Source of the DNA: an uncultured Methanosarcinales archaeon
GTDB taxonomy: Archaea; Nanobdellota; Nanobdellia; Woesearchaeales; CAZOXR01
DNA length: 64,000 nucleotides
Reading direction: 5' to 3'
Assembly (NCBI GenBank): GCA_964566535.1
Contig: CAZMIO010000003.1
Span: 89,153 to 153,152, forward strand
Shown: in pieces, positions 3,046 to 53,776 of the stretch
Numbering within the stretch: position 1 is the stretch's first letter
How the letters are laid out: every line of letters starts with the position of its first letter
Position numbers and translations under genes: made by a program
The notes under the pieces: model-generated
Seen by the model: only the letters and a program-made list of their open reading frames with translations
The model's database searches: none
Told to the model about the DNA's origin: nothing

Positions 3046-3834
3046 ATGACAACAATCAAAATAGAAACAATTGGCAAAAAGCCAAAACTAAAAAATCCAA
3101 TTCTAGTTGAAGGTTTACCTGGTATAGGAAATGTTGGAAAAGTAGCAGTTGATTTTATTGTTGAAGAAATAAAAGCAAAAAAATTATTTGAAATCTACTC
3201 TCACACATTCCCACATTCCGTTTTTGTTAACGAAGACAACCTTGTAGAATTACCTAAGGTTGAAATATACTATAAGCAAGGAAAAAGAGACATTTTATTC
3301 CTAGCAGGAGACATCCAACCAATAGATGAAGTATCATCCTACGAATTCTCAGAAAAGATACTCGACATCCTAGAAGAATTCAACGGAAAAGAAGTAATTA
3401 CTCTAGGGGGCATAGGACTTAGTGAAGTTCCAAAAAAACCTAAAATTTACTGTACAGGAAACTCAAAGAAGACAGTAGCAAAATATAAGGACAAGAATGT
3501 CAACCATAAGTTATACGGAGTAGTAGGACCAATTGTGGGAGTCTCAGGCCTTCTCCTAGGCCTAGCACAAAAAAGAAAGATAGATGCAGTATCGTTCCTA
3601 GCAGAAACTTATGCGCATCCAATGTATCTGGGAATGCAAGGCGCAAAAGAAATATTAAAACTACTAAATTCAAAATTAGGATTAAAGATAGACATGAAAA
3701 AGATGGACGAAGAAATACAAGAGATTGAAAAAGATTTGATGAAGAGAACAGAAGAACTAAACGATGTAGTTAAGCAAACTGCAATAAAGAAATTACAAGG
3801 CAAGTTAGGCGAAGAAGTAAATTATATTGGTTGA
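3046..3834 (+). CDS. PAC2-family proteasome-assembly-chaperone-like protein (COG1938)
   Basis: The N-terminal motif NPILVEGLPGIGNVGKVAVDFIVEE is typical of the archaeal PAC2/PbaB family. The gene lies downstream of Nop10, as in many archaea. Confidence 0.6.
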   Translation: MTTIKIETIGKKPKLKNPILVEGLPGIGNVGKVAVDFIVEEIKAKKLFEIYSHTFPHSVFVNEDNLVELPKVEIYYKQGKRDILFLAGDIQPIDEVSSYEFSEKILDILEEFNGKEVITLGGIGLSEVPKKPKIYCTGNSKKTVAKYKDKNVNHKLYGVVGPIVGVSGLLLGLAQKRKIDAVSFLAETYAHPMYLGMQGAKEILKLLNSKLGLKIDMKKMDEEIQEIEKDLMKRTEELNDVVKQTAIKKLQGKLGEEVNYIG

Positions 3835-3880
3835 TTTATTTTCAAAAGGTTTAAATACACATTCTCCAAAGAACTATCTT

Positions 3881-5173
3881 ATGAAAATTAAGAGTGTAAA
3901 AGCAAGAGAAATCCTTAGTTCTGGTTCAACTCCAACAATAGAAGTTACATGTAAGCTAAACTCGGGCATTAAAGGTACTGCTTCTGTTCCCTACGGCGCG
4001 TCTGCTGGTATTCACGAAGCTTTTGTACTCATGGATGGAGGCAAGCGCTATAATGGAAAAGGTATGTTAAAGGCTGTAGGGAATGTAAATAACATAATCT
4101 CTAAAAAAATCATTGGATTAGATGCTTCTAAACAAAGAAAAATTGACGAAACAATGATTGAGCTTGATGGAACAGAAAACAAAAAGAGATTAGGTGCTAA
4201 CGCTATACTCGGAGTAAGCTTAGCAGTCGCAAGAGCAGCAGCAAACCAAAAAAACACACCTATGTACCAACACATAAGGAATATCTTTGCTCTTCCAATA
4301 AAAAAATTCATTCTCCCAAATCCGATGATGGTCATAATTGAAGGAGGAAAGCATGCAGACCAATCTACAGATTTGCAGGAATATCTGGTATCTCCAATTG
4401 GATCAAAGTCTGTTAAGGAAAACATTCGTTCTGGAATTGAGGTTTATTTAGCCCTAAAAAGAATTCTTAAAGAAAAAGGATTAAGTGTAAATGTTGGCAA
4501 CGAAGGAGCTTTTGCTCCAAGCGGATTACCTACAAATGAAACTCCTCTCAAGATTATTAAAGAAGCAATAAGAAAAGCAGGCTACAAAGCAGGAAAAGAC
4601 ATAGGCATCTCATTAGATCCTGCAGCTTCTGAGATATATATAAAAGGTAAATATAAACTTAATAAGGAAAATAAAAAATTAAGTTCTGAACAAATGATAG
4701 ATTACTTCGAAGATTGGGTTAACAAATACCCGATAACAACTTTAGAAGACCCATTGCATGAAGATGACTGGGATAACTGGCCAAAATTAACTGAAAGGTT
4801 AGGCAAAAAAATACCAATTATTGGAGATGATCTAACAGTAACAAATCCTAAAAGATTACAAAAAGCAATTGACCTTAAGGCAATAAATGCAATTTTAATC
4901 AAACTAAATCAAATAGGAACCCTAACAGAAACAGTTGACTGCTGCATGTTGGCAAGAAAACATAAATTCATGACAGTCATAAGTCATAGGGGCGGTGGAG
5001 AAACTAATGACACAACTATGATCGATTTAGCAGTTGCTGTAAACTCTGGCTTTGTCAAAGTAGGACCATCAAGGGGAGAAAGAGTTGGAAAATACAATAG
5101 ATTGATGGAAATAGAAGATGAGTTAGGCACTAAAGCAAAAGTTGCAGGAAAGGATTTTAAGAAGATTGTATAA
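3881..5173 (+). CDS. eno: enolase (phosphopyruvate hydratase)
   Basis: The motifs AREILSSGSTPTIEV, PYGASAGIHEA, KGMLKAVGNVN and IELDGTENKKRLGANAILGVSLAVA are canonical enolase signatures. The start was chosen at MKIKSVKAREIL. Confidence 0.9.
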   Translation: MKIKSVKAREILSSGSTPTIEVTCKLNSGIKGTASVPYGASAGIHEAFVLMDGGKRYNGKGMLKAVGNVNNIISKKIIGLDASKQRKIDETMIELDGTENKKRLGANAILGVSLAVARAAANQKNTPMYQHIRNIFALPIKKFILPNPMMVIIEGGKHADQSTDLQEYLVSPIGSKSVKENIRSGIEVYLALKRILKEKGLSVNVGNEGAFAPSGLPTNETPLKIIKEAIRKAGYKAGKDIGISLDPAASEIYIKGKYKLNKENKKLSSEQMIDYFEDWVNKYPITTLEDPLHEDDWDNWPKLTERLGKKIPIIGDDLTVTNPKRLQKAIDLKAINAILIKLNQIGTLTETVDCCMLARKHKFMTVISHRGGGETNDTTMIDLAVAVNSGFVKVGPSRGERVGKYNRLMEIEDELGTKAKVAGKDFKKIV

Positions 5174-5174
5174 A

Positions 5175-5837
5175 ATGAACCTAAAAATCTACCTATTCAG
5201 ACACGCTCAAACATATTACAACAAAAAGCATTACTTCTGCGGATGGAAAGATTCTAAACTAACTCCCTTTGGCATAAAACAAGCTAAGATAATAGCTGGG
5301 AAACTAAAAAACAAAAAAATAGATATTGCTTACCATACAAGACTTTCAAGATCAAAAGACACCTTAAAAGAAGTTCTAAAATACCACCCTGAATGTAAAA
5401 GAGTAATCACGGATGACCGGATGATTGAACGCTGTTATGGCAAACTGCAAGGCACATCTCATAAAATGTTTATGGAAAAAGAAGGAACAGACTCCTACAA
5501 AACACTTCTACACTGGCACAAAATAGACCACCTAACAGGCAAAGACAAGGCAAAATTTATACAAGAGCTCGGAAAATCAGAGTTTGATATTATCCATAGG
5601 TCCTACAATGTCCCTCCTCCAAAAGGAGAAAGCATAAAGATGGTTGAAAAAAGAGTTCTAGGCTTCATAAAAGACCTTATAAAAAAAGTGAAAAAAGAAA
5701 AGACCCATGTAGCTATCTCTGCTCACGGAAACTCAATGAGGCCATTTCGAAGATATTTTGAAAAACTTAGCATAGAAAAAATGATGAATTTAGAAAATCC
5801 TTGGGATGACTATTTTGAGTATATCATAAAAGCCTAA
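5175..5837 (+). CDS. histidine-phosphatase superfamily protein (phosphoglycerate-mutase-like; candidate phosphoserine phosphatase)
   Basis: It has the N-terminal RHG-type motif (YLFRHAQTYYN) and a later SAHGNSMR motif, which are the branch-1 histidine phosphatase catalytic residues. It sits between enolase and the serine-biosynthesis genes. Confidence 0.55.
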   Translation: MNLKIYLFRHAQTYYNKKHYFCGWKDSKLTPFGIKQAKIIAGKLKNKKIDIAYHTRLSRSKDTLKEVLKYHPECKRVITDDRMIERCYGKLQGTSHKMFMEKEGTDSYKTLLHWHKIDHLTGKDKAKFIQELGKSEFDIIHRSYNVPPPKGESIKMVEKRVLGFIKDLIKKVKKEKTHVAISAHGNSMRPFRRYFEKLSIEKMMNLENPWDDYFEYIIKA

Positions 5838-13986: not shown

Positions 13987-14355
13987 TTATCTTTGACTAA
14001 ATGCTTTTCTCTCTGTCCTTACATCTCCAATAATCCTCGAAACCAAATCTCCATGTTCAGATCTAATATCGCTTCTATTTACTCTTTGCTTAAAAGCAAC
14101 ACCATAAATGTCAACTAACATCTTCTCAACATCAGTTACCCTTGCATTGTATAATGTAACAAGAGTATCTTTCCTTCTTGTTAATGGATGAAGTACACCA
14201 TCCTCGCTATTCGAACTAGTCCATCTTAATCCAGGTTTTTGCTCTTGGGCATCATAAATCACATCAAAACCACGGACTTCTCGCCCACCATCAACTTCAC
14301 AACCTACGGTATACGAACCCACATCTACCCATTCTGGCATTTCGTTTTGTTCCAT
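13987..14355 (-). CDS. hypothetical protein (non-host amino-acid composition)
   Basis: This 122-aa protein is Arg/Asp/Glu/Gly-rich with few Lys. It is co-directional with and downstream of the HD-domain ORF. Confidence 0.35.
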   Translation of the reverse strand: MEQNEMPEWVDVGSYTVGCEVDGGREVRGFDVIYDAQEQKPGLRWTSSNSEDGVLHPLTRRKDTLVTLYNARVTDVEKMLVDIYGVAFKQRVNRSDIRSEHGDLVSRIIGDVRTERKAFSQR

Positions 14356-14407
14356 TTTTGTTCATCTGTAATTATAATCTTCACTCCTTGCCTTTTCGAA
14401 TGCTTCC

Positions 14408-15685
14408 CTACCCTTTAATCATAGGAGCTTCATACCTTCCATAAGCTTCCCTAAACTTCCTTATCCCATCAAACACAACATGGCCCATAGCATAATCTTT
14501 GGCACCCCTTCTCCGATAGTGATCTTCCATCTCCTGAATCTCTCCAAAAGTTCTCACAATCAGCTCTGTTCTTAAATCAACTAATAGTTGAGGTTCATAG
14601 TGTTCTAAGAACACATCAATCCCTCTTAACACTTCAATATTCCGCTCAAACCTTTTTACTCTATCCTTAAGTTCAAGTTCATAAAGCCAATTAGTATTAT
14701 CAATAGCATCAGCAGCCTTAACAATCAATGGAGCGGCAATATACAACTCCATTTCTTCGGAATCACCCACTACATTACTAACTAATCCATAATTCTCTAC
14801 ACCTAAACACCCTTCAACCAATTCAGACATATATTCTCCATAATCTTGTCCAACTCCTTTCATATCTCTATCCTTAGTTAACAACCTTAATTGATACAAT
14901 TTTAGTTCTGCATCACTAGAATCAACAACTTCCTTTTCAAGATCATCTTCACCAACAACTACATGACTTCTTCCAAAAGTGAATATTTCTCTAACTCCTT
15001 CATATTCAGGAGGATTACGTATATCTCTAACATATTCAGCTCTCCTAACTTCATCATCAGTCCCTCCAAATAACTCTAATCTATAATCTGTTACATCTTC
15101 AATAACATCGTGCAAAAGACCCAACACTCTATGGTGTAATGGAGCACCATACGCATGAAGATTACCAGCCACCCTGGCAGGATGAACAAAACTACGTGCA
15201 TCCTTCCCAACCTCTCCACCTTTCCTTTGTTTTCCGGTCCAATTATGTCTTCTCTGCGCAAAATTAAATGTTCTAATAGTTCCCTCTCCAACCGCCCATG
15301 GAATCAATATCCTATTTGCAAAATAAAAATCATCTAATCTGCCCCTACCATACCTATCAGCAAAAACTCTCTCTACGCTAACACTATCTTCTCTCAACAA
15401 ACCTCGATCACTAACTTCAAGCCCATCAGTAGAAATTCTATTGTTCCTATAATGCCCCATATCTTCAAGTGTCCTCTGAGGTCCTCTAAGTCTATAAACC
15501 ACTTCTGTAGCAACACTTCTTCTATTAACTCTTCTTCCCGTCCTCACAATATCAAAAACTAGTCTCTGCGCATCAGATTCACTCTCCAACATCCCAGGAA
15601 GTCTACATCTCTTAATACGTTCTTCTAATTTACCGATATCATGTTCAGCCCCATTAATTGGCTCTTTGTCGTCGTCCATAGCCAT
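14408..15685 (-). CDS. HD-domain phosphohydrolase, RelA/SpoT-like (candidate (p)ppGpp hydrolase); non-host composition
   Basis: GLLHDVIEDVT matches the RelA/SpoT HD signature (LLHDVVEDT) and KAADAIDN is similar to the downstream KLADRLHN motif. It has 425 aa and very low Lys content. Confidence 0.45.
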   Translation of the reverse strand: MAMDDDKEPINGAEHDIGKLEERIKRCRLPGMLESESDAQRLVFDIVRTGRRVNRRSVATEVVYRLRGPQRTLEDMGHYRNNRISTDGLEVSDRGLLREDSVSVERVFADRYGRGRLDDFYFANRILIPWAVGEGTIRTFNFAQRRHNWTGKQRKGGEVGKDARSFVHPARVAGNLHAYGAPLHHRVLGLLHDVIEDVTDYRLELFGGTDDEVRRAEYVRDIRNPPEYEGVREIFTFGRSHVVVGEDDLEKEVVDSSDAELKLYQLRLLTKDRDMKGVGQDYGEYMSELVEGCLGVENYGLVSNVVGDSEEMELYIAAPLIVKAADAIDNTNWLYELELKDRVKRFERNIEVLRGIDVFLEHYEPQLLVDLRTELIVRTFGEIQEMEDHYRRRGAKDYAMGHVVFDGIRKFREAYGRYEAPMIKG

Positions 15686-15749
15686 AAGATAACCTTTCGC
15701 GTTTTAAATAGTTTTCCAAACAATCATTACTAAAAAGTAACTAACTACA

Positions 15750-16148
15750 TTATTGGAAACTAACCTTCATTTCAACGTTCCCTTTCAATCCATCAACAAA
15801 TCCCCTATCTAAATCTCTAGCCCCTTTATCACTTCTAATCCCTAAGGTTCTCTTAGAATTAAACTCAGATTTCCTAATAACAATCTCTTCAGAATCATCA
15901 AAGTCAGGATTAATCTGAGCACTTATCACTTCTTCCTTATTCTTCATTTTTATCGTTATTTTCAACGATTTATCATTATTTTTTATTTTATTTTCAATGA
16001 ATTTTTTTAGTAATGGCAGTTCAAAATCAGCCCTGACCCCAACTATACAATCGCCATTTAAAGTTAACTCTTTATCCTTAGTAAACTCAATAGTTGTCTT
16101 ATGATTACTTAATATATTAGAATGTCCAAATGCAGAAAATTCATACAT
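15750..16148 (-). CDS. hypothetical protein (DUF371-like?)
   Basis: The ORF was trimmed to start at MYEFSAFGHSNIL so that it does not overlap the upstream small gene. Confidence 0.35.
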   Translation of the reverse strand: MYEFSAFGHSNILSNHKTTIEFTKDKELTLNGDCIVGVRADFELPLLKKFIENKIKNNDKSLKITIKMKNKEEVISAQINPDFDDSEEIVIRKSEFNSKRTLGIRSDKGARDLDRGFVDGLKGNVEMKVSFQ

Positions 16149-16152
16149 TTTA

Positions 16153-16371
16153 CTAAACAATATCTTCAATTGGTTTCTTGCTCTTCTTCTGAGATTCCTT
16201 AGCCATTTTCTCAAGATCTACGCCCAATTCCTTCAAAGCCTTAACATGCATCTGCATTAACTGCTCTACAACCTGAAGAATCTTAGCCATTTCCTGCCTT
16301 TCTTTAGCCAAAGTACTCAAAGCACCTTTATGAAAGCCAATCTGTTCGTCTTTATTTACTTTTTTTGTCAT
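16153..16371 (-). CDS. small helical hypothetical protein
   Basis: This 72-aa protein is charged and predicted helical. It sits in tandem with the downstream gene. Confidence 0.3.
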   Translation of the reverse strand: MTKKVNKDEQIGFHKGALSTLAKERQEMAKILQVVEQLMQMHVKALKELGVDLEKMAKESQKKSKKPIEDIV

Positions 16372-16408: not shown

Positions 16409-16909
16409 TTAAGAAGACTTATGCCCCTGTTCCATATACCCTAAATGTTTAGGTGGCCTTAATTGTTCTTCTGTAGGTTCAATACCAATCATCTTACAAA
16501 CGTCAATAAATACTTCCCGTTGTTGAACATACCCCGTTAACATACTCAAAGCCTCATCGTAAGAAACCCATTGATAGTCACTATGCTCACCTTCAGCTGT
16601 TGCTATATCTACTTGAGAACCAACAGGCGCACGTACTGCATAAGTTACTAAGTCAATATGTATCGGATTACCACTTTTTTCAGTATCAAATCCAATGTAG
16701 TGTCTCGTATCTTCAATAATCTCTAGATGCCTCAATCCTTGAGCTTCTTCTCTAGTCTCTCTTATCGCTGCCTCAATATCACTCTCCCCTTCTTCTATAC
16801 CTCCACCAGGACTCTCCCAAAATCCTTTCCTAGCTCTAAGTAATAAGAATCTATAATCTCCATTATTTTCATCGTATACTATTGCCCTTACATTATTTCT
16901 TGTTTTCAT
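16409..16909 (-). CDS. Nudix hydrolase
   Basis: The Nudix box GGGIEEGESDIEAAIRETREEAQG matches GX5EX7REUXEEXGU. Confidence 0.75.
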   Translation of the reverse strand: MKTRNNVRAIVYDENNGDYRFLLLRARKGFWESPGGGIEEGESDIEAAIRETREEAQGLRHLEIIEDTRHYIGFDTEKSGNPIHIDLVTYAVRAPVGSQVDIATAEGEHSDYQWVSYDEALSMLTGYVQQREVFIDVCKMIGIEPTEEQLRPPKHLGYMEQGHKSS

Positions 16910-17018
16910 ACGCTAAAGGACCCATAGGCATTATATAAATCTTATGGTAGTAACAACACCAAAAACTCATTCAACAATCTTTATAAATCAAACTACAACC
17001 CATTTCATAAGGGGTAGT

Positions 17019-18896
17019 ATGGATAAAACAAATTTCCTTGATATTATAAACGAGCCAAAAGACTTAAGGCTATTAAACAAAGTACAATTAAAGTACTTAG
17101 CAAACGAACTAAGGCAATACATAATTAACACAGTTTCTAAAACAGGCGGACATCTAGCACCATCTTTAGGAGTAGTAGAGCTAACAATAGCGCTACATTA
17201 CGTTTTCAACTCTCCAACTGACAGAATTGTATGGGACGTAGGTCACCAGTCTTATCCTCACAAACTTCTAACAGGCAGAAAAGACATTTTTAGCACATTA
17301 AGACAATATAAGGGAATGTCAGGCTTCCCAAAAACAGAAGAATCTGATCATGACGCATTCAATACTGGACATTCCTCAACTTCAATCTCAGCAGCGCTAG
17401 GGATAGCCAAAGCAAGAGACCTAAAAGAGGAAGATCATAAAGTCATAGCTGTAATAGGGGACGGAGCAATGACTGGCGGATTAGCCTTTGAAGGACTTAA
17501 TCATGCAGGATCTTCAAAAACAAATCTTATAGTTATCCTAAATGACAACAAGATGTCCATCTCCCCAAATGTTGGAGCTCTCTCATCATACCTAGGTAAA
17601 ATGGTTACTAATCCTAAGTACCATGAAATAAGAAAAAAACTAGAACATTCACTAAGAAGAGTTCCAAGAATTGGTTCAAAGGCAGCTGAAAAAGCAATGA
17701 ATTTAGAAGATACCTTACGAGCATTATCAAATCCAGGAATGTTGTTCAAAGAACTCGGTTTTAGCTACTTCGGCCCAATTGATGGACATAACCTTGATGA
17801 CCTAATCAAAGCACTTCACAACATAAAGCTAATAGAAGGCCCAATCCTTCTACATATACACACAAAAAAAGGAAAAGGCTACTCTCATGCAGAAAACAAT
17901 AAAACAAAGTTCCATGGAATAAGTCCTTTCAATATAGACGATGGAGAAAAGGTAAAATGCGCAAATGCTCCAACTTACACCGAAATATTCTCAAAAACAA
18001 TCGTAAAGTTAGCCCAAGAAAACGAAAAAATAACTGCAATAACAGCAGCAATGGCACCAGGAACTGGACTCGATGATTTCTCAAAACAATTCCCAGAAAG
18101 ATTCTTCGATGTAGGCATAGCAGAACAGCATGCAGTTACTTTTGCAGCAGGATTAGCAATAAACGGATTCAAACCAATCTGCGCAATCTACTCAACTTTC
18201 CTACAAAGAGCATTCGATCAAATCATACATGATGTTTGCCTACAAAAACTTCCAGTCATCTTCGCAATTGACCGTGCAGGCTTAGTTGGAGAAGACGGAC
18301 CAACACATCACGGACCATTTGACATCTCATTCCTAAGACACATTCCTAACCTAGTAATTATGGCACCAAAAGACGAAAACGAATTCCAACACATGTTAAA
18401 AACAGCAGAGCAACATAACGGCCCAGTTGCAATAAGATACCCAAGAGCTTGTGGGTTAGGAATAGAATTAGATGAAAAACTAACCTCATTACCAATGGGA
18501 AAAGCAGAGATAATTGAGGAAGGAAAAGATGTTTTAATCCTAGCAATCGGAACGTGCGTTCAAAAATCAATAGAAGCAGCAGAAGAACTAGAAAAAAACA
18601 ATATCAAACCAACAATAGTAAACGCAAGATTCGCAAAACCTCTAGACGAACAATTAATAATTAAATTAGCAAACAAAATCCCAAATATCCTAACAGTAGA
18701 AGAAAACACCCTAGAAGGCGGCTTCGGCTCATCAATATTAGAAATTCTAGAGAAGAACAACATCAAAGCAAACGTCGAAAGAATAGGGGTCCCAGATAAG
18801 TTCGTCGAAGCAGGACCAATCGACGTTTTAAAGAAAAGTATAGGCCTAACAAAAGAGAATATTGCAAAAGTTGCAACTAAATTAGTAAAAAAATGA
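17019..18896 (+). CDS. dxs: 1-deoxy-D-xylulose-5-phosphate synthase
   Basis: GGHLAPSLGVVELTIALHYVFNSPTDRIVWDVGHQSYPHKLLTGR, the TPP motif GDGAMTGGLAFEGLNHAG and ILNDN match Dxs. The start was chosen at MDKTNFLD. Confidence 0.9.
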   Translation: MDKTNFLDIINEPKDLRLLNKVQLKYLANELRQYIINTVSKTGGHLAPSLGVVELTIALHYVFNSPTDRIVWDVGHQSYPHKLLTGRKDIFSTLRQYKGMSGFPKTEESDHDAFNTGHSSTSISAALGIAKARDLKEEDHKVIAVIGDGAMTGGLAFEGLNHAGSSKTNLIVILNDNKMSISPNVGALSSYLGKMVTNPKYHEIRKKLEHSLRRVPRIGSKAAEKAMNLEDTLRALSNPGMLFKELGFSYFGPIDGHNLDDLIKALHNIKLIEGPILLHIHTKKGKGYSHAENNKTKFHGISPFNIDDGEKVKCANAPTYTEIFSKTIVKLAQENEKITAITAAMAPGTGLDDFSKQFPERFFDVGIAEQHAVTFAAGLAINGFKPICAIYSTFLQRAFDQIIHDVCLQKLPVIFAIDRAGLVGEDGPTHHGPFDISFLRHIPNLVIMAPKDENEFQHMLKTAEQHNGPVAIRYPRACGLGIELDEKLTSLPMGKAEIIEEGKDVLILAIGTCVQKSIEAAEELEKNNIKPTIVNARFAKPLDEQLIIKLANKIPNILTVEENTLEGGFGSSILEILEKNNIKANVERIGVPDKFVEAGPIDVLKKSIGLTKENIAKVATKLVKK

Positions 18897-19936
18897 TAAG
18901 AAAGCCAACCAAAGAGATTAAAATCGGTAACGTAACCATCGGCAACAATAATCCTATCGCCATCCAATCGATGACAAACACATTAACTAAGGATGTAACT
19001 GCCACAATTAACCAAATCAAAGAACTCCAAGAATTAGGCTGCGAAATAGTAAGAGTTTCTGTACCAGACCAAGAATCAGTCAACGCCTTAAAAGAAATAA
19101 AACAAAACATAAACATACCGTTAGTAGCAGATATTCATTTCGACGCAAAACTAGCAATTGAAGCAGCAAAATACGCAGACAAACTAAGAATCAATCCAGG
19201 AAACATCGGTAATGAAGAAAAAATTAAGCAAGTTATCAACGCAGCAAAAGAAAACAACATCCCAATCAGAATTGGAGTTAACCTAGGCTCATTAGAAAAA
19301 GACCTAGAAAAAGAATACGGCTTAACACCAAAAGCAATGCTAGAATCAGTTAAAAGACAAATAGCAATCTTCGAAAAAAACGATTTCCATAACATCGTAG
19401 TAGCACTAAAAACGTCAGACATCAAAAAAACAATTGAAGTCAACAGAATGTTCGCAAAAGAATACGACTACCCTATACATCTAGGAATAACAGAAGCAGG
19501 CTCTGGGTTCTCAGGCACAATAAAATCATCAATTGGAATTGGAACATTACTACAAGATGGAATCGGAGACACAATCAGAGTTTCACTATCAGCCCAACCA
19601 AACGAAGAAGTAAAAGTAGCAAAACAAATATTATCTTCATTAAAGATAAGAAAGTTCGGTGTAGAAATAACCTCTTGCCCAACCTGCGCAAGAGCAAACC
19701 TTGACGTAATCCAAACAACAAAAGAATTAGAAAAACTAACCGAAAAAAGTAAAACTCCAATCAGCATAGCAGTAATGGGCTGCGCAGTAAACGGACCAGG
19801 CGAAGCAAAAGAAGCCGATATTGGCGTAGTCGGGGGAATTGACGAATGCCTACTCTACAAAAAAGGAGAGATAATAAGAAAAATAAAAAAAGAAGATATT
19901 TCTAAAGTTTTATTGGATGAGATTGAAGGAAGATGA
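18893..19936 (+). CDS. ispG: 4-hydroxy-3-methylbut-2-enyl diphosphate synthase
   Basis: PIAIQSMTNT, VRVSVPD, LVADIHFD, LRINPGNIG, HLGITEAG and CPTC...GCAVNGPGE are collinear with bacterial GcpE. It overlaps the dxs stop. Confidence 0.9.
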   Translation: MIRKPTKEIKIGNVTIGNNNPIAIQSMTNTLTKDVTATINQIKELQELGCEIVRVSVPDQESVNALKEIKQNINIPLVADIHFDAKLAIEAAKYADKLRINPGNIGNEEKIKQVINAAKENNIPIRIGVNLGSLEKDLEKEYGLTPKAMLESVKRQIAIFEKNDFHNIVVALKTSDIKKTIEVNRMFAKEYDYPIHLGITEAGSGFSGTIKSSIGIGTLLQDGIGDTIRVSLSAQPNEEVKVAKQILSSLKIRKFGVEITSCPTCARANLDVIQTTKELEKLTEKSKTPISIAVMGCAVNGPGEAKEADIGVVGGIDECLLYKKGEIIRKIKKEDISKVLLDEIEGR

Positions 19937-20361
19937 AGGCAAGAATAATCCCAATGCCGCCGAGGGGGAGCGTAGGTGAAGATTACACTCAAGTTGGTGG
20001 TCCACCTTATTTATTATTTGAAGGCGAAGCTGAAGGATATGATATAGTTCTTGGTTATAGGATCATTCCCGGAGACTCACAGCAGGTTGCACACAGAGTC
20101 CAATCTGCAGATCTTAGATTAGAGACCGATATCAGAGCAATACCTACAGGAGACATTTCAATCGCAGCAGAATATGAAAGCGAGAGTACTGGTGATTTAG
20201 TAGAAGCAGTAATTAGGGAGTCTAGAAACTTTGCTAAATTAGGAAATGCTGACTACTATTTTGTTGATTTGACTAGTCCAGGAATTATAACTTCACCCGT
20301 GCCACCATTCCGAGGGAGACCATATGTTGTTGTTAGACCTTTATTATTTAGAGGGATATAA
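19933..20361 (+). CDS. hypothetical protein (non-host composition), translationally coupled to ispG
   Basis: An ATGA overlap joins it to the ispG stop. It is 142 aa, Gly/Pro/Arg/Asp/Glu-rich, with 2 Lys. Confidence 0.35.
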   Translation: MKARIIPMPPRGSVGEDYTQVGGPPYLLFEGEAEGYDIVLGYRIIPGDSQQVAHRVQSADLRLETDIRAIPTGDISIAAEYESESTGDLVEAVIRESRNFAKLGNADYYFVDLTSPGIITSPVPPFRGRPYVVVRPLLFRGI

Positions 20362-21709: not shown

Positions 21710-22705
21710 ATGTTACAAAATCAATTTGCAGATCCAAGATATACAGGTTTAGATACTTTTCTAGCTGGCGATACATTTGCAGGCATAGAAAGCGCTTATT
21801 CTCCAGACACTGCACATCATGTTCAAAGAATGACTGCACAGTTTTACAAAGTACTGGGTCGAAATCCCGCTAAAGAAGCTGAAATTCCATCAAGAGTAGC
21901 AGCAGCTGAAGCAATTGTAGAACAATTAACAACAGATGAAGTAGTAAATTCAATTGATAAGTGGAGACAACTAATCTATAGCTGTACTGATGCACCAGAT
22001 TTTATGCCAGATGATCTTCCTTCATGGGTAACCCCTGACGAATATCCAGGAGACCTCACTTCAGGTATACTAGCTTATTTTATAAGACCTAGTGAAGCTT
22101 TAGCCGAATCTGCTCATTTAGATGAGGCATACGATATTGTTGATAAGTTACCTGACTTCATGAAACCTAGGACAGTTAGAGCAATTACAAGAGCAGGACA
22201 ATCGCCATCTACTCATCTAGTAGGAAGAAATACTTTTGGATTACCCTCAGCAAAATATGCTCATGACATTGCAGAAAATGTTTACGCAACAGAAGAGCTA
22301 GCTGAACTTACCGAAGTTTATACTCGTTTCCTTAGAAATCCAGATAATACGCAAGTTGAGAATCTAGCAAGAATAGTATTAAACCCACTCCACGCAAAAG
22401 TAGAGGCAGATTATAGGAAAACACCTTACCATTCACCAGAACATTGGCAGGGATTAAGAAATTATGCATCTGCTATGGCACAACCCGAGGGAAGAACAAA
22501 TGTTGGTTTAAATATTGCTAATAAACTTGCAAGAACTGGTTTAAAAGAATCTGGAATGCAAAGTATCATGGATTATGCCCAACAAAAACAAGTTGGTAGA
22601 GATCAACTAAGAGGGCAAGTTGCAAAGCTCTCAAGAAAATTACGTGACGGTACTACGCCACAACCACAAACCTTAGGTGATTTTAATCAATTACTAATGT
22701 CTTAA
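21710..22705 (+). CDS. hypothetical protein (non-host composition)
   Basis: It is 331 aa with about 4 percent Lys against a host-typical content well above 10 percent. No motif was recognised. Confidence 0.35.
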   Translation: MLQNQFADPRYTGLDTFLAGDTFAGIESAYSPDTAHHVQRMTAQFYKVLGRNPAKEAEIPSRVAAAEAIVEQLTTDEVVNSIDKWRQLIYSCTDAPDFMPDDLPSWVTPDEYPGDLTSGILAYFIRPSEALAESAHLDEAYDIVDKLPDFMKPRTVRAITRAGQSPSTHLVGRNTFGLPSAKYAHDIAENVYATEELAELTEVYTRFLRNPDNTQVENLARIVLNPLHAKVEADYRKTPYHSPEHWQGLRNYASAMAQPEGRTNVGLNIANKLARTGLKESGMQSIMDYAQQKQVGRDQLRGQVAKLSRKLRDGTTPQPQTLGDFNQLLMS

Positions 22706-23749: not shown

Positions 23750-24880
23750 ATGAAAACACTATCAATATTAGGCTCAACAGGATCAATAGGAACACAAACA
23801 CTAGAGTTAGTTAGAAACAATCCTAATGAATTCAAAGTCCTAGGCTTAACTGTAAACAAAAACATCGAACTTCTAAAACAACAAATAGACGAATTCAATC
23901 CAGTTTCAGTTGCAGTAATGGACGAACAAAAAGCAGACGAACTAAAAGTTGACATCCCAGTCTACAAAGGATTAGAAGGAATAAACAAAATTGCAACATT
24001 ACAAGAATCAAACACAATCATAAACTCCCTTGTAGGATCAATAGGAGTAATTCCAACAATAAAAGCAATTAAAGAAAAAAAGAACATTGCTTTAGCAAAC
24101 AAAGAAACATTAGTAACAGCAGGAGACATAGTAATGGAAGAAGTAAGAAAACATCAAGTAAACTTAATGCCAATTGATTCTGAACATTCTGCAATATTTC
24201 AATGCCTAAACGGAGAAAAAATAAACGAACTAAAAAAAATAATCATAACTTGCTCAGGCGGAGCATTCAAAAACAAAACAGAAGAAGAACTAAAAACAGT
24301 AACAGCAAAAGACGCTTTAAAACACCCTACCTGGAACATGGGTGCAAAGATAACGATTGACTCAGCAACTCTAATGAACAAAGGCTTTGAAGTTATTGAA
24401 GCACATCACTTATACAACATTCCTTACGAACAAATTGAAGTTATCATACATCCAGAGTCAATCATCCATTCATTAGTTGAATTCCAAGACACCTCAATCA
24501 TAGCACAATTAGGATACCCAGATATGAAAATACCTATCCAATACGCATTAACATATCCAAAGAGAATAAAGAACAACTTAAAATCCCTAAACCTCAACGA
24601 ATTAAAGCAATTAAACTTCAAAACCCCTAACCATCAATTATTCCCATGCCTAAATTACGCTTACGAAGCAGGAAAAACAAAAGGAACCTTACCAGCAGTA
24701 CTAAACGCAGCAAACGAAGTTGCAGTACAACAATTCTTAGAAAATAAAATATCTTTCCTAGACATCGCAAAAACAATAAAACAAGCCCTAGACTCACATA
24801 ATATAATCAAAAACCCAGACTTAGCTGAAATCTTAGAAGTTGATAAGCAAACAAGAGAAAACGCTTCACTCAAAAGCTAA
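23750..24880 (+). CDS. dxr: 1-deoxy-D-xylulose-5-phosphate reductoisomerase
   Basis: LSILGSTGSIGTQTL, LANKE(T/S)LV, DSEHSAIFQ, GSGGAF and HP.W.MG are Dxr signatures. It is about 376 aa. Confidence 0.9.
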   Translation: MKTLSILGSTGSIGTQTLELVRNNPNEFKVLGLTVNKNIELLKQQIDEFNPVSVAVMDEQKADELKVDIPVYKGLEGINKIATLQESNTIINSLVGSIGVIPTIKAIKEKKNIALANKETLVTAGDIVMEEVRKHQVNLMPIDSEHSAIFQCLNGEKINELKKIIITCSGGAFKNKTEEELKTVTAKDALKHPTWNMGAKITIDSATLMNKGFEVIEAHHLYNIPYEQIEVIIHPESIIHSLVEFQDTSIIAQLGYPDMKIPIQYALTYPKRIKNNLKSLNLNELKQLNFKTPNHQLFPCLNYAYEAGKTKGTLPAVLNAANEVAVQQFLENKISFLDIAKTIKQALDSHNIIKNPDLAEILEVDKQTRENASLKS

Positions 24881-25634: not shown

Positions 25635-26258
25635 ATGGCAGTCATATCTTCAGAACAATATCAAGCAAGACTTCTAGCTACCTTGGCACATTTACAAGAT
25701 TCGGATATAAAAGATCAAATAGGCCCTAAATTAGGAGGGCGGGGAGGTACAGCTTTTTATCCTATGGGTGATGTACAATTGCCTGGAGAGGATCCATTAT
25801 ACTTAGGTCTTAAATTAAGAAGTAATTCTGAAGAAGAAATCGCAAAAGAATTACAACTCTTTGAATTCTTGTACACCTTAGGCTGCCCAGTACCTTATTT
25901 AAGTGTTGTTGTAACCAATGGGGAAGATGTAGGAATATTAACAGAAGACCTTACACGTAATGGGGAACTAGACTTAACAGAGATTATCCTACCTCACTTT
26001 ATCCCTGACTCATTGGACAACTGTGCAGAACTAAGGGAACAATACGGAGGTTCTTGTATGGATATAAACCAAACAGGCATTACAGCTTATGGAAAATCTT
26101 ACTTCGTTGCTCATGAACCATACACAACAGGGATAGGAAGAGGCTGTTTTCTTGATATAGAACATTTTGAATTCCCACCAGACATAAAAGAACTAGAACA
26201 ACAAGTAAAACAAGAAGCACCAAAGTATCTCAGAGAACCATTATTATTAAGGGTATAA
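25635..26258 (+). CDS. hypothetical protein (non-host composition)
   Basis: It is 207 aa, Gly/Leu/Glu/Pro-rich with few Lys. Confidence 0.35.
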   Translation: MAVISSEQYQARLLATLAHLQDSDIKDQIGPKLGGRGGTAFYPMGDVQLPGEDPLYLGLKLRSNSEEEIAKELQLFEFLYTLGCPVPYLSVVVTNGEDVGILTEDLTRNGELDLTEIILPHFIPDSLDNCAELREQYGGSCMDINQTGITAYGKSYFVAHEPYTTGIGRGCFLDIEHFEFPPDIKELEQQVKQEAPKYLREPLLLRV

Positions 26259-32578: not shown

Positions 32579-34555
32579 ATGTTCAGATCGCACGATATGA
32601 AGAAGGTAGTGATTTTTGCTCTTAATAATCACAGAGACACTATCCTTTCAAAGATACAAAAACTAGGTTTAATGCAGCCTGTTGACCTCAAAAAAAGCGA
32701 AGTCAAAGAGCTAAACAAACCATTAGATAATTCTAACTTAAGGAAAATATCAGATTCCCTCCTAAGAATCTCAAGGTTAGTTAACATATTAAAAATTCCC
32801 CCTAAGAAACCCTCATTTGTCCAATCAATTCTTGGACTAGACTTATTAGATAAAAAACCAGTCCAGCATCAAAATTACACTAAAGTACTACAAGAATCGG
32901 AATCATTTCTAAATAAACACGAAAAAGAATTAATCAATCTAGAAGACGACCACTCAAAACTCCTGGAAAGAGAAGAAGAACTTGGTGGGTTTCATGTAAT
33001 TGTAGAACTATTTGGTCAGCACAACATCCCCTTAGAACTCCTAGCATCAACTGAAAAGATCTCAATCGTAACTGGACGTGTCTCAAATGAACACAAGCAA
33101 AAACTAGAGCAGGAATTAAACGAAAAATTAAACTCAGAAGTCCATATCATCACAAAAGAACAAGATAAGAAAGAATCAATCATAACTGTAGTCTCATTAA
33201 AAGAAAAACTTCCAGACTTAAACTTCTTAATGAAGAAATATAACGTTTCACAATTCACGATTCCAGAATGGGGAATAAAAAAGGACCCTAAGAACTATGT
33301 TGAAACAGAACTCAAGAGTGTTGAGCTAAAAAAGGAAGAGATTATGGGCAAAATAAGCAAATATGCCTCTAACACATTTGAAGGAGCAGTAATCCTAAGA
33401 GAAGAACTAGAAATTCTAAAACACCGTTACGAGACAATACATTCTATGCTCGACTCAGAAAAATTCTTCGTACTTCAAGGATGGATTCTAGCAAACAAAC
33501 TAAAACATTTCGAAACTGAACTAAAGACATCAGTAAACGAAAGTATAATAATCAAAGTAGAAGACCCCAAGAAAGATGACAATCCACCAGTAGAATTATC
33601 AAATAAAAAACACTTCAAGCCATTTGAGATGCTAACTGAACTTTATGCACTACCTAAATATAAAGACCTAGACCCCACTTTCATCGTAGGTCCATTATTC
33701 CTTATTTTCGCAGCATTCATGTTAACAGATGCAGTTTACGGATTTTTCTTAGTTATACTAGGGATATTAATCTTAAAGAAATTCGCAAAATACTCAGAAA
33801 GTATGAAACAAATTGCAGTTATCATCTTAGGCATGGGGCTACTCACTGTAATGTTTGGTATTTTAACGGGTTCCTATTTTGGTGACTTCCCAAAGTACAT
33901 CTGGGGAATGGAACCTAAAGATTTAGCAATATGGAAAGACCCGCTAGAAGATCCATTATATTTCCTAATCATCGCAATTGGAACAGCAGTCATTTACTTA
34001 AACATCGGATTCATCCTAGGAGTTATTGAAGACTTCAGGAAACGAGACTTCAAAACAATGTTTAAGGAAAGATTAGTCTGGTTTATGCTCCAGGCAGGGA
34101 TAGCATTACTAATATTGAAGGCAAATCCAATTTTATTCTCACTCCTTGGCAAAGATATTGGTTTAGCAACATTAATCATCACAATTTCAGTACTATCTAT
34201 AGTGATAACATCAGGACCATTAGGTTTACTATCTATAACAGGACTCATGGGGGACATGATTTCATTTTCACGTCTTTTCGCACTATCATTATCTACAGCA
34301 GGAATTGCCCTAGCAGTCAACTTGCTGGCAAATCTTGTTAAAGACACACCATTTGTGGGAATAATCTTGGCAGCAATCATATTCTTAATTGGACATGCAT
34401 TTGGGTTTGTAATGAATTCAATAGGTAGTTTTGTACATTCACTAAGGTTACAATTCGTAGAATTCTTCGGAAGATTCTATGAAGGTGGTGGAGATAAATT
34501 CACCCCACTAAAGGAAGACCGTTATTATACAGAGGTTAAAGAAGATGACAATTGA
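32579..34555 (+). CDS. atpI: A-type ATP synthase subunit I (stator a-subunit)
   Basis: It is 658 aa, with a soluble N-terminal half and a C-terminal polytopic membrane domain containing the conserved Arg-bearing helix (..SFSRLFALSLS..). Confidence 0.85.
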   Translation: MFRSHDMKKVVIFALNNHRDTILSKIQKLGLMQPVDLKKSEVKELNKPLDNSNLRKISDSLLRISRLVNILKIPPKKPSFVQSILGLDLLDKKPVQHQNYTKVLQESESFLNKHEKELINLEDDHSKLLEREEELGGFHVIVELFGQHNIPLELLASTEKISIVTGRVSNEHKQKLEQELNEKLNSEVHIITKEQDKKESIITVVSLKEKLPDLNFLMKKYNVSQFTIPEWGIKKDPKNYVETELKSVELKKEEIMGKISKYASNTFEGAVILREELEILKHRYETIHSMLDSEKFFVLQGWILANKLKHFETELKTSVNESIIIKVEDPKKDDNPPVELSNKKHFKPFEMLTELYALPKYKDLDPTFIVGPLFLIFAAFMLTDAVYGFFLVILGILILKKFAKYSESMKQIAVIILGMGLLTVMFGILTGSYFGDFPKYIWGMEPKDLAIWKDPLEDPLYFLIIAIGTAVIYLNIGFILGVIEDFRKRDFKTMFKERLVWFMLQAGIALLILKANPILFSLLGKDIGLATLIITISVLSIVITSGPLGLLSITGLMGDMISFSRLFALSLSTAGIALAVNLLANLVKDTPFVGIILAAIIFLIGHAFGFVMNSIGSFVHSLRLQFVEFFGRFYEGGGDKFTPLKEDRYYTEVKEDDN

Positions 34556-37500
34556 GGATGTAGCTAACATCATCACAATTCCAATACAAAAGAATGGAGT
34601 TCCAGCTACTATCCAGGTTATTAACCAAACAGTAGCAGATACAGCATCTACTGCAATAACCAACATCTCAAACACAGCAGCAGATGCAGTAATCACCGTT
34701 TCAAACACAGCAGCAGATGTAGCAGTTAATACAACTAAAGCAGCAACAGTTCTATTAGGAATGGATTTCGGGAACCTAGATGGAAAAGCAGTAGCAATCA
34801 TTGGAGCAGGAATAGCAGTTGCAGCAGCAGGAATTGCATCAGCAATCGGAGCAGGAATTGTTGGTTCTACTGGAGCAAGAGAATCTGCAGAGGATCCAAA
34901 AAGATTTTCACAATCATTACTATTCCAAGCCCTACCTCAAACTCAGGGAATTTATGGTTTTTTAATAGCAATCCTAATCATGTTAGGCGCAGGAGTAATA
35001 GGCCCTGCAAAAGAAATAACTTTATCTCAAGGACTTGGCGCCCTAGGAGCTGGGTTAGCAGTTGGACTTGCAGCAGTATCAGCAATCGGTCAAGGGTTAG
35101 CCGCATCTGCTGGATTAGGAGCAACAGCAAGAGACAAAAAGATGTTCGGAAAATCAATCCTATTCTCAGTACTTCCAGAAACACAAGCACTATACGGATT
35201 CCTTGTAGCTATCCTTATATTAGTAGGATTCGGACTTTTCGGAACTGCACCAGTAGACATACCAATCGCAGCTGGTTGGGCAGCAGTTGGAGCAGGTCTT
35301 GCAATAGGTCTTGCAGGTATCAGTGCAATCGGTCAGGGAATCGCTGCAGCAGGAAGCATTGGGGCAGTCTTAGAAAAAAGCAAGGCATTTGGTAAATCAG
35401 TTATATTCGCAGTACTCCCAGAAACACAAGCCCTATACGGATTCATAATCGCAATCTTAATCCTCATTGGATTCGGAATCCTAGGAACAGCAACTACAGC
35501 ACTTTCATTTGGAGCAGCACTATTCACAATTGCAGCAGGATTAAGTGTTGGTCTTGCAGCAGTATCGGCAATCGGTCAGGGAATCGCAGCATCTTCAGGG
35601 GTAAATGCAGTAGCCTCAAATGACAAATCATTCGGAAAATCAATCCTATTCTCAGTACTCCCAGAAACACAAGCACTATACGGCTTTTTAATTGCCATCC
35701 TTCTTCTAGTTGGAGCAGGAATAATTGGAGCTGCAAAAGCAGGCATAACTACCCCAATAGGAGTCATTGCAATCGGTGCAGGACTTGCAGCAGGTATTGC
35801 AGGTATCAGTGCAATCGGTCAGGGAATCGCAGCCAGCGCAGGAATTAATGCAGTAAGTCAAAAACCAAAATCATTCGGAAAAGCTATTCTTTTCAGTGTC
35901 CTCCCAGAAACACAAGCACTATACGGCTTCCTAATAGCTATCCTCTTATTAGTTGGAGGGGGAATATTAGGAACAGCAAAGCTTGGAATTGAAATTCACG
36001 TTGGATTAATAGCAATCGGAGCAGGCCTTGCAACAGGTCTTGCAGCAATCTCAGCAGTAGGTCAGGGAATCGCAGCCTCATCAGGAATAGCAACAGTAGC
36101 TAAAGACGAAAAATCATTCGGAAAATCAATCCTATTCAGCGTCTTACCAGAAACACAAGCACTATACGGCTTCCTAATAGCAATCTTATTAATGGTAGGC
36201 GGAGGATTACTAGGTGCAATCAAATCAGGATTAAATATATCAACAGGACTTATTGCAATCGGTGCAGGCTTAGCAACTGGTCTTGCAGCAGTATCAGCAA
36301 TCGGTCAGGGAATCGCAGCCTCATCAGGCATTAACACAGTTTCAAAAAATCCAAAATCATTCGGAAAATCAATCCTATTCTCAGTACTTCCAGAAACACA
36401 AGCCCTATACGGCTTCCTAATAGCAATCCTACTAATGGTAGGCGGAGGAATAGTTGGAGCAACAACAACTGGATTATCATCCGGAATTGGATTAATCGCA
36501 GTTGGATGTGGTATAGCAGTTGGATTTGCAGCAGTCTCAGCAGTAGGTCAGGGAATCGCAGCCAGCGCAGGAATCAATGCAGTAAACGAAAACCCAAAAT
36601 CATTCGGAAAATCAATCCTATTCTCAGTCTTACCAGAAACACAAGCACTATACGGCTTCCTAATAGCAATCCTACTAATGGTAGGCGGAGGATTAGTTGG
36701 AATAGTCAAACAAGGAATAGACCTCCCTATAGGATTAGTGGCAATCGGAGCTGCCATTGCAACAGGAATTGCAGGTATCAGCGCAGTAGGTCAGGGAATG
36801 GCAGCATCATCTGGAATAGCAACAGTAGCTAAAGACGAAAAATCATTCGGAAAATCAATCCTATTCTCAGTCTTACCAGAAACACAAGCACTATACGGCT
36901 TCCTAATAGCAATCCTACTAATGGTAGGGGGAGGATTATTGGGTGTAATCAAAGAAGGCATAAGCATAGCTATTGGTTTTGTGGCAATCGGTGCAGGACT
37001 TGCAGCAGGTTTAGCAGCAGTCTCAGCAGTTGGTCAAGGAATCGCGGCCTCATCCGGTATTAATACAGTTTCAAGAAATCCAAAATCATTCGGAAAATCA
37101 ATCCTATTCAGCGTCTTACCAGAAACACAAGCACTATACGGCTTCCTAATCGCTGTACTTCTACTTGTAGGCGGAGGAATAATCGGAGTAATAAATCCTA
37201 ATATCAACTTACCAGTTGGATTAATAGCAATCGGTGCAGGACTTGCAACAGGTTTAGCAGCAGTCTCAGCAGTAGGTCAGGGAATGGCAGCAGCTGCAGG
37301 AGCAGAAGCAGCATCTGAAGATCCAAAATCATTCGGAAAATCAATCCTATTCAGCGTCTTACCAGAAACACAAGCACTATACGGCTTCCTAATAGCAATC
37401 CTACTAGTAGCTTCAGGAGGAATACTGGGAGCAGCAAAACCAGGCCTTACAGTACCGATTGGACTTGTAGCAGTTGGTGCAGGAGTATCTATCGGAGTTG

Positions 37501-37916: not shown

Positions 37917-37919
37917 TGA

Positions 37920-38489: not shown

Positions 38490-38493
38490 AAAA

Positions 38494-39537: not shown

Positions 39538-39538
39538 G

Positions 39539-39838: not shown

Positions 39839-39854
39839 CCTCGGAGGGATTATA

Positions 39855-49892: not shown

Positions 49893-49972
49893 ACATGCCT
49901 CTTTTTTAAAGTTTGTCTAAAAATAGGTTAATTCAAAATATTTTTATACAAACTACCATTCCTCAACATAAA

Positions 49973-50296: not shown

Positions 50297-50359
50297 ATTT
50301 CTCAAATCCAAGAACAAAAATTCTAAATTAAATTTAAGAAATATTAACAAAAACACAAT

Positions 50360-53673: not shown

Positions 53674-53776
53674 ATCACTAACCTAAATAAGAACTCATAT
53701 AAAAATAATTTCTTTATGAAAATAACCTCATAGTAATCATACAATCAATAAATTTATACAAATTATCAGCCATAAC

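Follow-up and report, generated by a model that had tools for sequence, protein, structure and literature searches.

Genes at the locus

The 64,000-nt stretch of DNA analysed here (the window), from a metagenome-assembled genome of Candidatus Woesearchaeota (DPANN archaea), carries on its minus strand two consecutive open reading frames (ORFs), of 425 and 122 amino acids (aa). A first-pass annotation, made from the sequence alone, had described them as a co-directional pair in which the larger protein resembles the hydrolases in the superfamily of RelA/SpoT homologues (RSH), and had proposed them as a candidate alarmone-hydrolase cassette of foreign composition. The positions, lengths and shared orientation of the two ORFs are as described there, with the 122-aa ORF lying 52 nt downstream of the 425-aa ORF.

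14408..15685, minus strand: 425-aa ORF, from the ORF list; a homologue of RSH-type (HD_4-like) hydrolases, belonging to a small, mostly DPANN-archaeal family
13987..14355, minus strand: 122-aa ORF, from the ORF list; a divergent member of a new small-protein family, as judged by profile comparison
15702..15710, minus strand: TATTTAAAA, a possible archaeal TATA box upstream of the 425-aa ORF, 17-25 nt upstream of the ATG; a candidate read directly from the sequence

At NCBI the larger ORF is recorded as a hypothetical protein that starts at the ATG at 15679 and has 423 aa; for the smaller ORF, an alternative start at 14340 would give 117 aa. On the opposite strand of the gene pair the ORFs are short and overlapped.

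In amino-acid terms, the atypical composition that had been ascribed to both ORFs is genuine. R/(R+K) is 0.75 in the 425-aa ORF and 0.72 in the 122-aa ORF, compared with about 0.2 in the flanking genes, and K, I and N together make up about 12% of both proteins, compared with 25-37% in the flanking genes. G+C content is raised at the first and second codon positions (GC1 and GC2) of both ORFs, while at the third position (GC3) it is host-like, at 0.24-0.26; the overall G+C content is slightly elevated (0.385 vs about 0.35). The same R-rich, K/I/N-poor composition occurs in other ORFs, about 15 of 65 across the window, and it is therefore a real property but no signature of the hydrolase cassette. 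Nine of the ten R-rich ORFs that were scanned against Pfam match no family.

The idea that the pair is of foreign composition and was acquired is not supported. Roughly a fifth of the window's genes share the composition, and the hydrolase gene occupies the same syntenic site in relatives whose aIF5B is only 57% identical to that of the window. It follows that the hydrolase gene is an old resident of the locus. A foreign island was also considered and rejected: the flanks of the pair and the pair itself contain no tRNA gene, no Rfam RNA gene and no repeats beyond chance, and the synteny with distant relatives argues against a recent insertion.

As a separate observation, the ORFs of the window are bimodal in amino-acid composition. 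An R-rich class, with R/(R+K) of 0.5-0.9 and GC3 of 0.15-0.26, the latter below that of the K-rich core genes, is mostly orphan and is interspersed along the stretch (for example 19933-20361, 21710-22705, 25635-26258, 43851-44171, 49913-50707, 52804-56986 and 59694-60875). It takes in the hydrolase gene, the 122-aa ORF and a NUDIX gene that is described below.

The 425-aa protein as a homologue of RSH hydrolases

The resemblance to RelA/SpoT had been drawn from two short motifs, GLLHDVIEDVT and KAADAIDN, which lie at residues 189-199 and 323-330, respectively. The likeness proves to be far beyond chance. From 18 long RSH genes of bacteria, fetched by metagenome scan, we took the hydrolase domains and built a hidden Markov model (HMM). 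It matches the 425-aa ORF with an E-value of 1.8e-10, and this is its sole match among window ORFs of at least 50 aa. When an alignment of 18 members of the protein's own family was compared by hhalign with the 18 bacterial long-RSH hydrolase domains, the two matched with 98% probability and an E-value of 2.4e-13 over 157 columns. The match takes in the RSH hydrolase domain in full (residues 136-383); it extends beyond the H...HD core and includes the RSH-specific 'KLADRLHN' helix.

Comparisons with proteins of solved structure lead in the same direction. In a search of their sequences with the family profile, 12 of the top 20 matches are hydrolase-bearing RSH proteins (E 0.002-0.25), comprising Rel of M. 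tuberculosis, B. subtilis, S. dysgalactiae and S. aureus, SpoT, Lmo0812, a (p)ppApp hydrolase and Mesh1/HDDC3. All informative matches are RSH hydrolases, and none belongs to another HD family. The AlphaFold2 (AF2) model of the 425-aa protein (pLDDT 71.7, pTM 0.77) is all-helical, and the highest Foldseek probabilities obtained with it are for B. subtilis Rel (0.97), SpoT (0.97) and S. aureus Rel (0.80), the two matches at 0.97 being 6yxa and 7qpr. With E-values above 0.1, the Foldseek matches fall short of significance, the query being a helical protein of several domains. Taken as profile evidence, these comparisons identify the 425-aa protein as a remote but genuine homologue of the RSH (HD_4-type) hydrolase domain. 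Its parts are as follows.

15281..15685, minus strand: N-terminal extension, residues 1-135, from the family alignments
14537..15280, minus strand: RSH-type HD hydrolase domain, residues 136-383, from hhalign, our own HMM, NCBIfam spoT_relA, the solved-structure matches and Foldseek
15179..15229, minus strand: motif QRKGGEVGKDARSFVHP, residues 153-169, with R154 and H168; aligned to Rel/SpoT 'Q.R.SGEPY..HP'
15095..15118, minus strand: motif LLHDVIED, residues 190-197, with predicted metal ligands H192-D193 and the E196-D197 catalytic pair; Rel/SpoT 'LLHDvvED'
14693..14722, minus strand: motif VKAADAIDNT, residues 322-331; equivalent to Rel/SpoT 'KLADRLHNMRT'

Alignment with Rel and SpoT assigns a role to each of the key positions. 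The window form 'QRKGGE...FVHP' aligns with the first Rel motif so that R154 corresponds to the substrate-binding Arg and H168 to the first metal-binding His; D326 corresponds to the last metal ligand, and K323 and N330 to substrate-contact positions. Conservation was judged in two family alignments, one of 18 closer members and one of 31 members. H168 and H192 are invariant in both alignments and R154 is nearly invariant (18-31 members); among the 31 members D193 and E196 are nearly invariant, and among the 18 closer ones wholly so; and position 197 is either E or D across the family. K323, D329, N330 and T331 are invariant, and D326 is nearly invariant, being E in the family member P0012. 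The protein thus carries the H...HD...D metal ligands together with the RSH-specific Arg, the E-D pair and the K..D...N helix, and by alignment every metal-ligand and catalytic residue of RSH hydrolases is intact in it. The first-pass annotation had staked its claim on a match to RSH hydrolases and on these ligands, and both were found.

The remainder of the protein is as that annotation had it, in that the N- and C-terminal regions outside the HD core match no known domain in Pfam or in the solved-structure profile search. The N-terminal extension, which in the AF2 model consists mostly of helices with two short strands, has positions that are conserved within the family (C27, L33-E34, D38-A39, R48, R51, E61, Y64, Y79, I84 and F108), and it is equally without a match in the N-terminal regions of the paired synthetases described below. 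Relative to bacterial Rel/SpoT, the hydrolase domain contains two insertions, at about residues 203-255 (about 50 residues) and 292-316 (about 25 residues), and in the 425-aa family it is followed by a C-terminal helical tail. Neither the insertions nor the tail match any known domain.

Two groups of enzymes are the closest points of comparison. With the small alarmone hydrolases (SAHs; Mesh1, PbcSpo, PaSpo and the (p)ppApp hydrolase Aph1; HD_4, PF13328) the window protein shares, by profile-profile comparison, the same catalytic domain, including the H...HD...D metal site, the E-D pair after the HD and the K..D...N helix; like them, it stands alone, its polypeptide having no synthetase domain. 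It differs in architecture, because the SAHs are small single-domain proteins of about 150-200 aa, whereas the window protein has 425 aa, the two insertions and the helical tail at the C-terminus being added to an N-terminal domain of about 135 residues. It also differs in that it falls below all curated models, in that the traced members of its family are from DPANN-type archaea and metagenome contigs, and in being paired with a dedicated small protein. The best matches, in sequence profile as in fold, are to the hydrolase domains of the long RSH enzymes (Rel, SpoT; 1vj7, 5xnx, 6yxa, 7qpr), whose catalytic residues correspond one to one with those of the window protein; unlike the long RSH enzymes, however, the window protein has no fused synthetase, TGS or ACT domain. 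We take the 425-aa protein to be an archaeal counterpart, enlarged and very divergent, of the small alarmone hydrolases of bacteria.

The family is small. An exhaustive profile search of 1.84 billion proteins recovered about 30 representatives at E<=1e-3, the weakest matches being proteins that pass Pfam HD_4, and a word-indexed search of 5.8 billion clusters with the 425-aa protein recovered three matching proteins. One member, P0001, from a Ca. Woesearchaeota metagenome-assembled genome (MAG), is 100% identical to the 425-aa ORF, and the members that were traced to a source come from DPANN-type archaeal MAGs and metagenome contigs. Compared with a 77%-identical orthologue in the locus designated L001, the 425-aa gene has a ratio of non-synonymous to synonymous substitution rates (dN/dS) of 0.21, the neighbouring genes having ratios of 0.02-0.33. 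Purifying selection thus acts on the gene.

That archaea can have RSH genes is not new in itself, since RelA/SpoT annotations have already been made in DPANN. Archaeal genes for SAHs and for small alarmone synthetases (SASs) were found only sporadically and were seen as transfers (Atkinson et al. 2011, PMC3153485). Of the MAGs of Woesearchaeota, 41.7% were reported to carry RelA/SpoT annotations, for which a bacterial origin was predicted (Li et al. 2021, PMC8407392). The window family belongs to the same superfamily and occurs in the same broad lineages as these homologues (PMC8407392, PMC3153485). Unlike the DPANN genes that were annotated from standard models, however, the window hydrolase family fails those models, and its member here is recorded as a hypothetical protein. 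In the literature examined on archaeal RSH genes, we found no description of this hydrolase family or of its pairing with a small protein.

The small partner and the neighbourhoods in relatives

Used alone as a query, the 122-aa ORF retrieves only one match, P0004, which is 97% identical and adjoins an identical hydrolase C-terminus in locus L046. In more distant loci, an ORF of 119-150 aa follows the gene of the hydrolase family, and often the stop codon of the one overlaps or abuts the start codon of the other. We collected 12 members of this small partner family, which are 108-150 aa in length and share an invariant motif, IAWMPDxxQQHxNPQ. A profile built from the 12 members, with the window ORF left out, matches the 122-aa ORF with an E-value of 1.2e-6 and 23.9 bits, a score to be set against a maximum of 5.6 bits among 2000 shuffles. 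Among the 795 ORFs of the window and L001-L008, it is the only non-family ORF with an E-value below 0.3. By hhalign the 122-aa ORF matches the small family with 76% probability and an E-value of 2.2e-5, over residues 66-117 only.

14005..14160, minus strand: residues 66-117 of the 122-aa protein, its predicted-helical C-terminal half, where homology to the partner family is detectable

The placement of the small gene is likewise conserved. It lies directly downstream of the hydrolase family in five lineages (L003/L008, L005, L039-41, L042-44 and window/L046), and once, as P0045 in L045, it lies downstream of a RelA_SpoT synthetase. The window ORF has the same placement, immediately downstream of and co-directional with a hydrolase-family gene. 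The downstream ORF that had been put forward as a partner is thus a real and conserved one, and the profile evidence places it, as a divergent member, in a new family of small proteins found alongside the hydrolase family. A different origin for the 122-aa ORF, as a remnant of a synthetase, was considered and rejected, no similarity having been found. In the AF2 model of P0035, which belongs to the family (pLDDT 82.5), three helices come after four strands; it shows a weak, low-probability resemblance to WGR and SH3-like domains only.

The hydrolase family is found in two chromosomal settings. In setting A, which is that of the window, the order is a 72-aa ORF, DUF371, the hydrolase, one or more variable genes, a convergent PUA gene and aIF5B. 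In setting B, the order is an XPD-type helicase, the hydrolase, the small partner, a nitroreductase and a DNA ligase; the loci are L003/L008, L005 and L039-44, together with L004, which is without the small gene. The content of the variable slot in setting A is as follows (coordinates are those of the respective locus).

Window: the 122-aa small protein
L001 (hydrolase 77% identical), 3817-5600: a 223-aa methyltransferase-like gene and a 371-aa unlabelled protein
L047, 1556-4382: a 798-aa protein and the same methyltransferase-like gene as in L001
L050: a 475-aa protein matching Pfam RelA_SpoT (PF04607) and our own synthetase HMM (E 3e-16)
L051, 1470-2675: a synthetase-like protein of 401 aa, which matches the synthetase of L045 in BLASTP (E 2e-5)
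L052, 2447-3496: a 349-aa protein without an assigned family

The L050 locus is the most telling of these. It reads 63-aa ORF, DUF371, the hydrolase family member P0012, the 475-aa RelA_SpoT protein, PUA and aIF5B, and its identities to the window are 57% for aIF5B, 44% for PUA, 44% for DUF371, 63% for the 72-aa ORF and 28.5% for the hydrolase. L050 is truly syntenic with the window. In L045, a 493-aa protein with HD-like motifs is followed by a 429-aa RelA_SpoT synthetase (Pfam E 1.1e-18) and by the small partner P0045. The L045 synthetase is 28% identical to that of L050 over 457 residues, and both are separate genes with an N-terminal extension of their own, of about 280 residues. The 493-aa gene resembles the hydrolase family at the level of motifs only (QRSRRPIASH, GLPHDLPEDV and IVKGMDLTDTT). 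Taken together, the neighbourhoods thus link the hydrolase family, a specific archaeal synthetase family and the small-protein family pairwise. The alarmone connection that had been proposed for the pair is strengthened by L050, where the same hydrolase family stands beside a bona fide RelA_SpoT synthetase; in L045, the second locus with a synthetase, the upstream gene is HD-like in its motifs alone.

Other large genes of the variable slot were compared with RSH synthetases. The 371-aa gene of L001 has motifs that look co-linear with synthetase motifs (DNSGLQFVF, EDYYSRREGDYHAIHF and EIILMET), and hhalign picks the same alignment. As a hidden synthetase, however, it gave no significant result with an RSH-synthetase HMM (E 0.6), in Smith-Waterman comparison (z -0.8 to 0.6) or with hhalign (P 0.24). 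The 349-aa gene of L052 was negative in the hhalign and HMM tests for a synthetase, and the 798-aa gene of L047 shows a short PK.N.YQSMH match only, with E-values of 7e-4 to 1.6e-5 in small databases. The 64-kb window contains neither a methyltransferase-like gene nor a gene like the 798-aa one.

Some further observations concern these loci. The methyltransferase-like genes of L001 and L047 are 42% identical. Several of the large variable-slot proteins have degenerate synthetase-like motifs, with G.Q.V in place of G.R.V and E.ILMET or ELMGET in place of E.QIRT, a resemblance that is statistically unconfirmed. The contigs of L003 and L006, which are titled uncultured Methanosarcinales archaeon, have a gene order in common with the Woesearchaeota/Nanoarchaeia loci L004 and L005, and between L003/L006 and L004/L005 the first residues of adjacent ORFs look closely alike; the Methanosarcinales label on L003 and L006 may be a binning or classification error. 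The DUF371 gene and the 72-aa lysine-rich ORF (15750-16214 and 16153-16371, minus strand) lie directly upstream of the hydrolase in the window, and their position is kept in L001 and L050; in L047, DUF371 is at the contig edge, and in L052 only a homologue of the 72-aa ORF is present. Their adjacency to the hydrolase may reflect either simple synteny or a functional link.

Possible functions of the gene pair

A known bacterial arrangement offers a framework for these data. Operons are described in which a toxic synthetase (toxSAS) is accompanied by an SAH antitoxin, including a three-gene aTfaRel-faRel-aT2faRel form (Jimmy et al., 10.1101/575399). In the tricistronic operon of Cellulomonas marina, which consists of aTfaRel (SAH), faRel (toxSAS) and aT2faRel (10.1101/575399), the order is hydrolase, synthetase, small protein, and this order recurs in L050 and L045. 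As in toxSAS operons, the hydrolase of these two loci is upstream of the synthetase and in the same orientation; the likeness is one of gene order. Unlike the toxSAS module, the window has no synthetase, the hosts are archaeal and the hydrolase is much larger than ATfaRel.

We favour, with confidence only a little better than even, the interpretation that the window carries a synthetase-less pair of hydrolase and accessory protein, derived from an archaeal hydrolase/synthetase module that resembles SAH-toxSAS operons. The ancestral module would have consisted of hydrolase and synthetase, with or without the small protein. The window would be a derivative that has no synthetase and has retained the hydrolase and its small partner, the synthetase slot holding the small protein only. 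The enzyme would most likely remove the 3'-diphosphate from nucleotides of the (p)ppGpp or (p)ppApp type, an alternative substrate being some other 3'-pyrophosphorylated product of a RelA_SpoT-type nucleotidyltransferase, such as a pyrophosphorylated tRNA end. Presumably it would degrade the product of a synthetase that is located elsewhere in the genome or arrives from outside. The small protein would be a binding or accessory subunit, whether it regulates the hydrolase, binds the synthetase or acts as an antitoxin-like partner, and this is the weakest link of the proposal. A toxin-neutralising role of the gene pair, which had been suggested at the outset, is so far an analogy. The homology, the intact catalytic residues, the conserved pairing, the purifying selection and the synteny with a locus that has a synthetase are shown; the substrate, the role of the small protein and any toxin-antitoxin or signalling logic in this scheme we infer.

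A number of observations weigh against this interpretation. The first concern the alarmone link itself. The first-pass annotation had called for a genomic search for a synthetase partner; the synthetase HMM and tblastn with archaeal synthetases find none in the 64-kb window, and a local source of substrate is therefore missing. An unambiguous hydrolase paired with a Pfam-passing synthetase is found in L050 only, L051 being a weaker second case, and the 493-aa gene of L045 matches the hydrolase family by hhalign with P 0.013, at the motif level only. Tests of archaea for (p)ppGpp have so far been negative, as in Haloferax and Sulfolobus (PMC8646023). The second concern the curated models. The RelA/SpoT-type search that had been recommended succeeded with our own RSH HMM and failed with the standard families: HD_4 (PF13328) is not reported for the 425-aa protein at E<=0.1 in the Pfam scan, the Pfam HD score, 15.6 bits, stays below the cut-off of 22, and NCBIfam spoT_relA reaches 18.3 bits where 499 are required, its match (E 5.7e-4) being confined to residues 140-202.

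The remaining points concern the small protein. The N-terminal half of the 122-aa protein is without the family motif IAWMPDxxQQHxNPQ; at that position the window shows LRWTSSNSEDGVLHPL, of which only the W and one P align. The P0035 model finds nothing significant with Foldseek among PDB or viral structures, and the small protein has no Pfam, NCBIfam or PADLOC match. Between the 122-aa ORF and its L046 copy there are three non-synonymous and no synonymous changes, too few for selection to be judged.

A broader version of the favoured interpretation is that DPANN archaea have a three-part RSH module of their own, made up of the enlarged hydrolase, a RelA_SpoT synthetase with a long N-terminus and a novel beta+alpha protein, which would act as an alarmone circuit or as a toxSAS-type toxin-antitoxin (TA) or defence system. 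The window would then represent a synthetase-less scavenger or immunity state, whose targets, alarmone-type nucleotides or tRNA pyrophosphorylation, would come from hosts, from viruses or from a distant locus. We regard this version as doubtful. The metabolism of alarmones, (p)ppGpp and (p)ppApp, is a central stress and conflict system of bacteria, and its existence and role in archaea are unsettled. The hydrolase, the synthetase and the small protein provide a concrete, testable set of three for asking if alarmones are made and degraded by ultra-small symbiotic archaea, or if these run toxSAS-like toxin-antitoxin systems. In addition, a hydrolase family that is missed by the standard models and yet keeps all the catalytic residues shows that current annotation under-counts RSH hydrolases.

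There are other possible scenarios for the pair. One is that the 425-aa protein is a housekeeping enzyme comparable to Mesh1, with an RSH fold and a non-alarmone substrate (NADPH, pAp-type nucleotides or another phosphorylated metabolite), that the small protein is regulatory and that the synthetase neighbour is incidental. Mesh1 is also an NADPH phosphatase, and RSH-fold hydrolases can take other substrates, a precedent that counts for this scenario and against an alarmone substrate. The window is without a synthetase, most of the family's loci are without a recognisable one (L003-L005, L039-44), and the family resides at two stable chromosomal sites among core genes under purifying selection, all of which would suit a housekeeping function. 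We nevertheless consider it unlikely. The RSH-specific substrate motifs (R154, the E-D pair and K...D...N) are fully kept, synthetase or synthetase-like genes occupy the adjacent slot in L050 and L051, and L045 ties a synthetase to the small partner; the recurrence of synthetases is unlikely to be coincidental because the family has only about 30 representatives.

Another scenario, to which we would give a similarly low probability, sees in the pair the remnant of a TA or defence system. By analogy with the bacterial operons, the hydrolase would be a type IV antitoxin and the small protein a type II-like antitoxin, and the toxic synthetase would have been lost, leaving either an orphan immunity against toxSAS-type enzymes of viruses or neighbours or a system in decay. 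The layout is like that of bacterial SAH-toxSAS-small-antitoxin operons, and the downstream slot differs in every relative (122; 223+371; 798 plus methyltransferase-like; 475; 401; 349 aa), a turnover typical of conflict systems. The hydrolase, moreover, evolves faster than its neighbours, with 28.5% identity to its L050 counterpart compared with 44-63% for theirs. On the other hand, PADLOC defence-system models match neither the 425-aa nor the 122-aa protein, the locus lies among core genes and outside any defence island, and the dN/dS of 0.21 speaks against decay of the hydrolase. This scenario overlaps the interpretation of a synthetase-less hydrolase and accessory pair, from which it differs mainly in biological purpose. 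Highly improbable, finally, is the reading in which the 425-aa protein belongs among generic phosphohydrolases or nucleases of the HD superfamily, without a specific relation to RSH enzymes, and in which its motif likeness to them is convergent or superfamily-wide: the curated-model matches are all sub-threshold and the Foldseek E-values are not significant, as such an origin would have it, but the profile-profile match covers the whole RSH domain with its 'KLADRLHN' helix, the informative solved-structure matches are RSH proteins only, the tail of the profile search reaches HD_4 members, and relatives have a synthetase as a neighbour.

Other genes of the window

The NUDIX hydrolase gene mentioned above (16409-16909, minus strand; Pfam E 9e-20; PADLOC PDC-S07 E 2.3e-9) is R-rich and belongs to the same co-directional gene string as the hydrolase. 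It is a lineage-specific insertion, being absent from the syntenic loci L001 and L050. Some NUDIX enzymes degrade (p)ppGpp; any link of the window NUDIX gene to this activity would be hypothetical.

A 1123-aa ORF (34545-37916, plus strand) contains 13 tandem ATP-synt_C (PF00137) hairpin domains (E 2.5e-221) and has a G+C content of 0.43-0.45, compared with about 0.35 elsewhere. The single polypeptide that it encodes may make up a proteolipid rotor ring, wholly or for the most part. It lies among ORFs that resemble, by appearance only, an A/V-type ATPase operon (about 32579-43008).

Finally, we note the presence of bacterial-type genes of the methylerythritol phosphate (MEP) pathway. Archaea normally use the mevalonate route for isoprenoids; in this woesearchaeal window, DXS, IspG/GcpE and DXR have strong Pfam matches at 16944-18896, 18893-19936 and 23750-24880 (plus strand), respectively.

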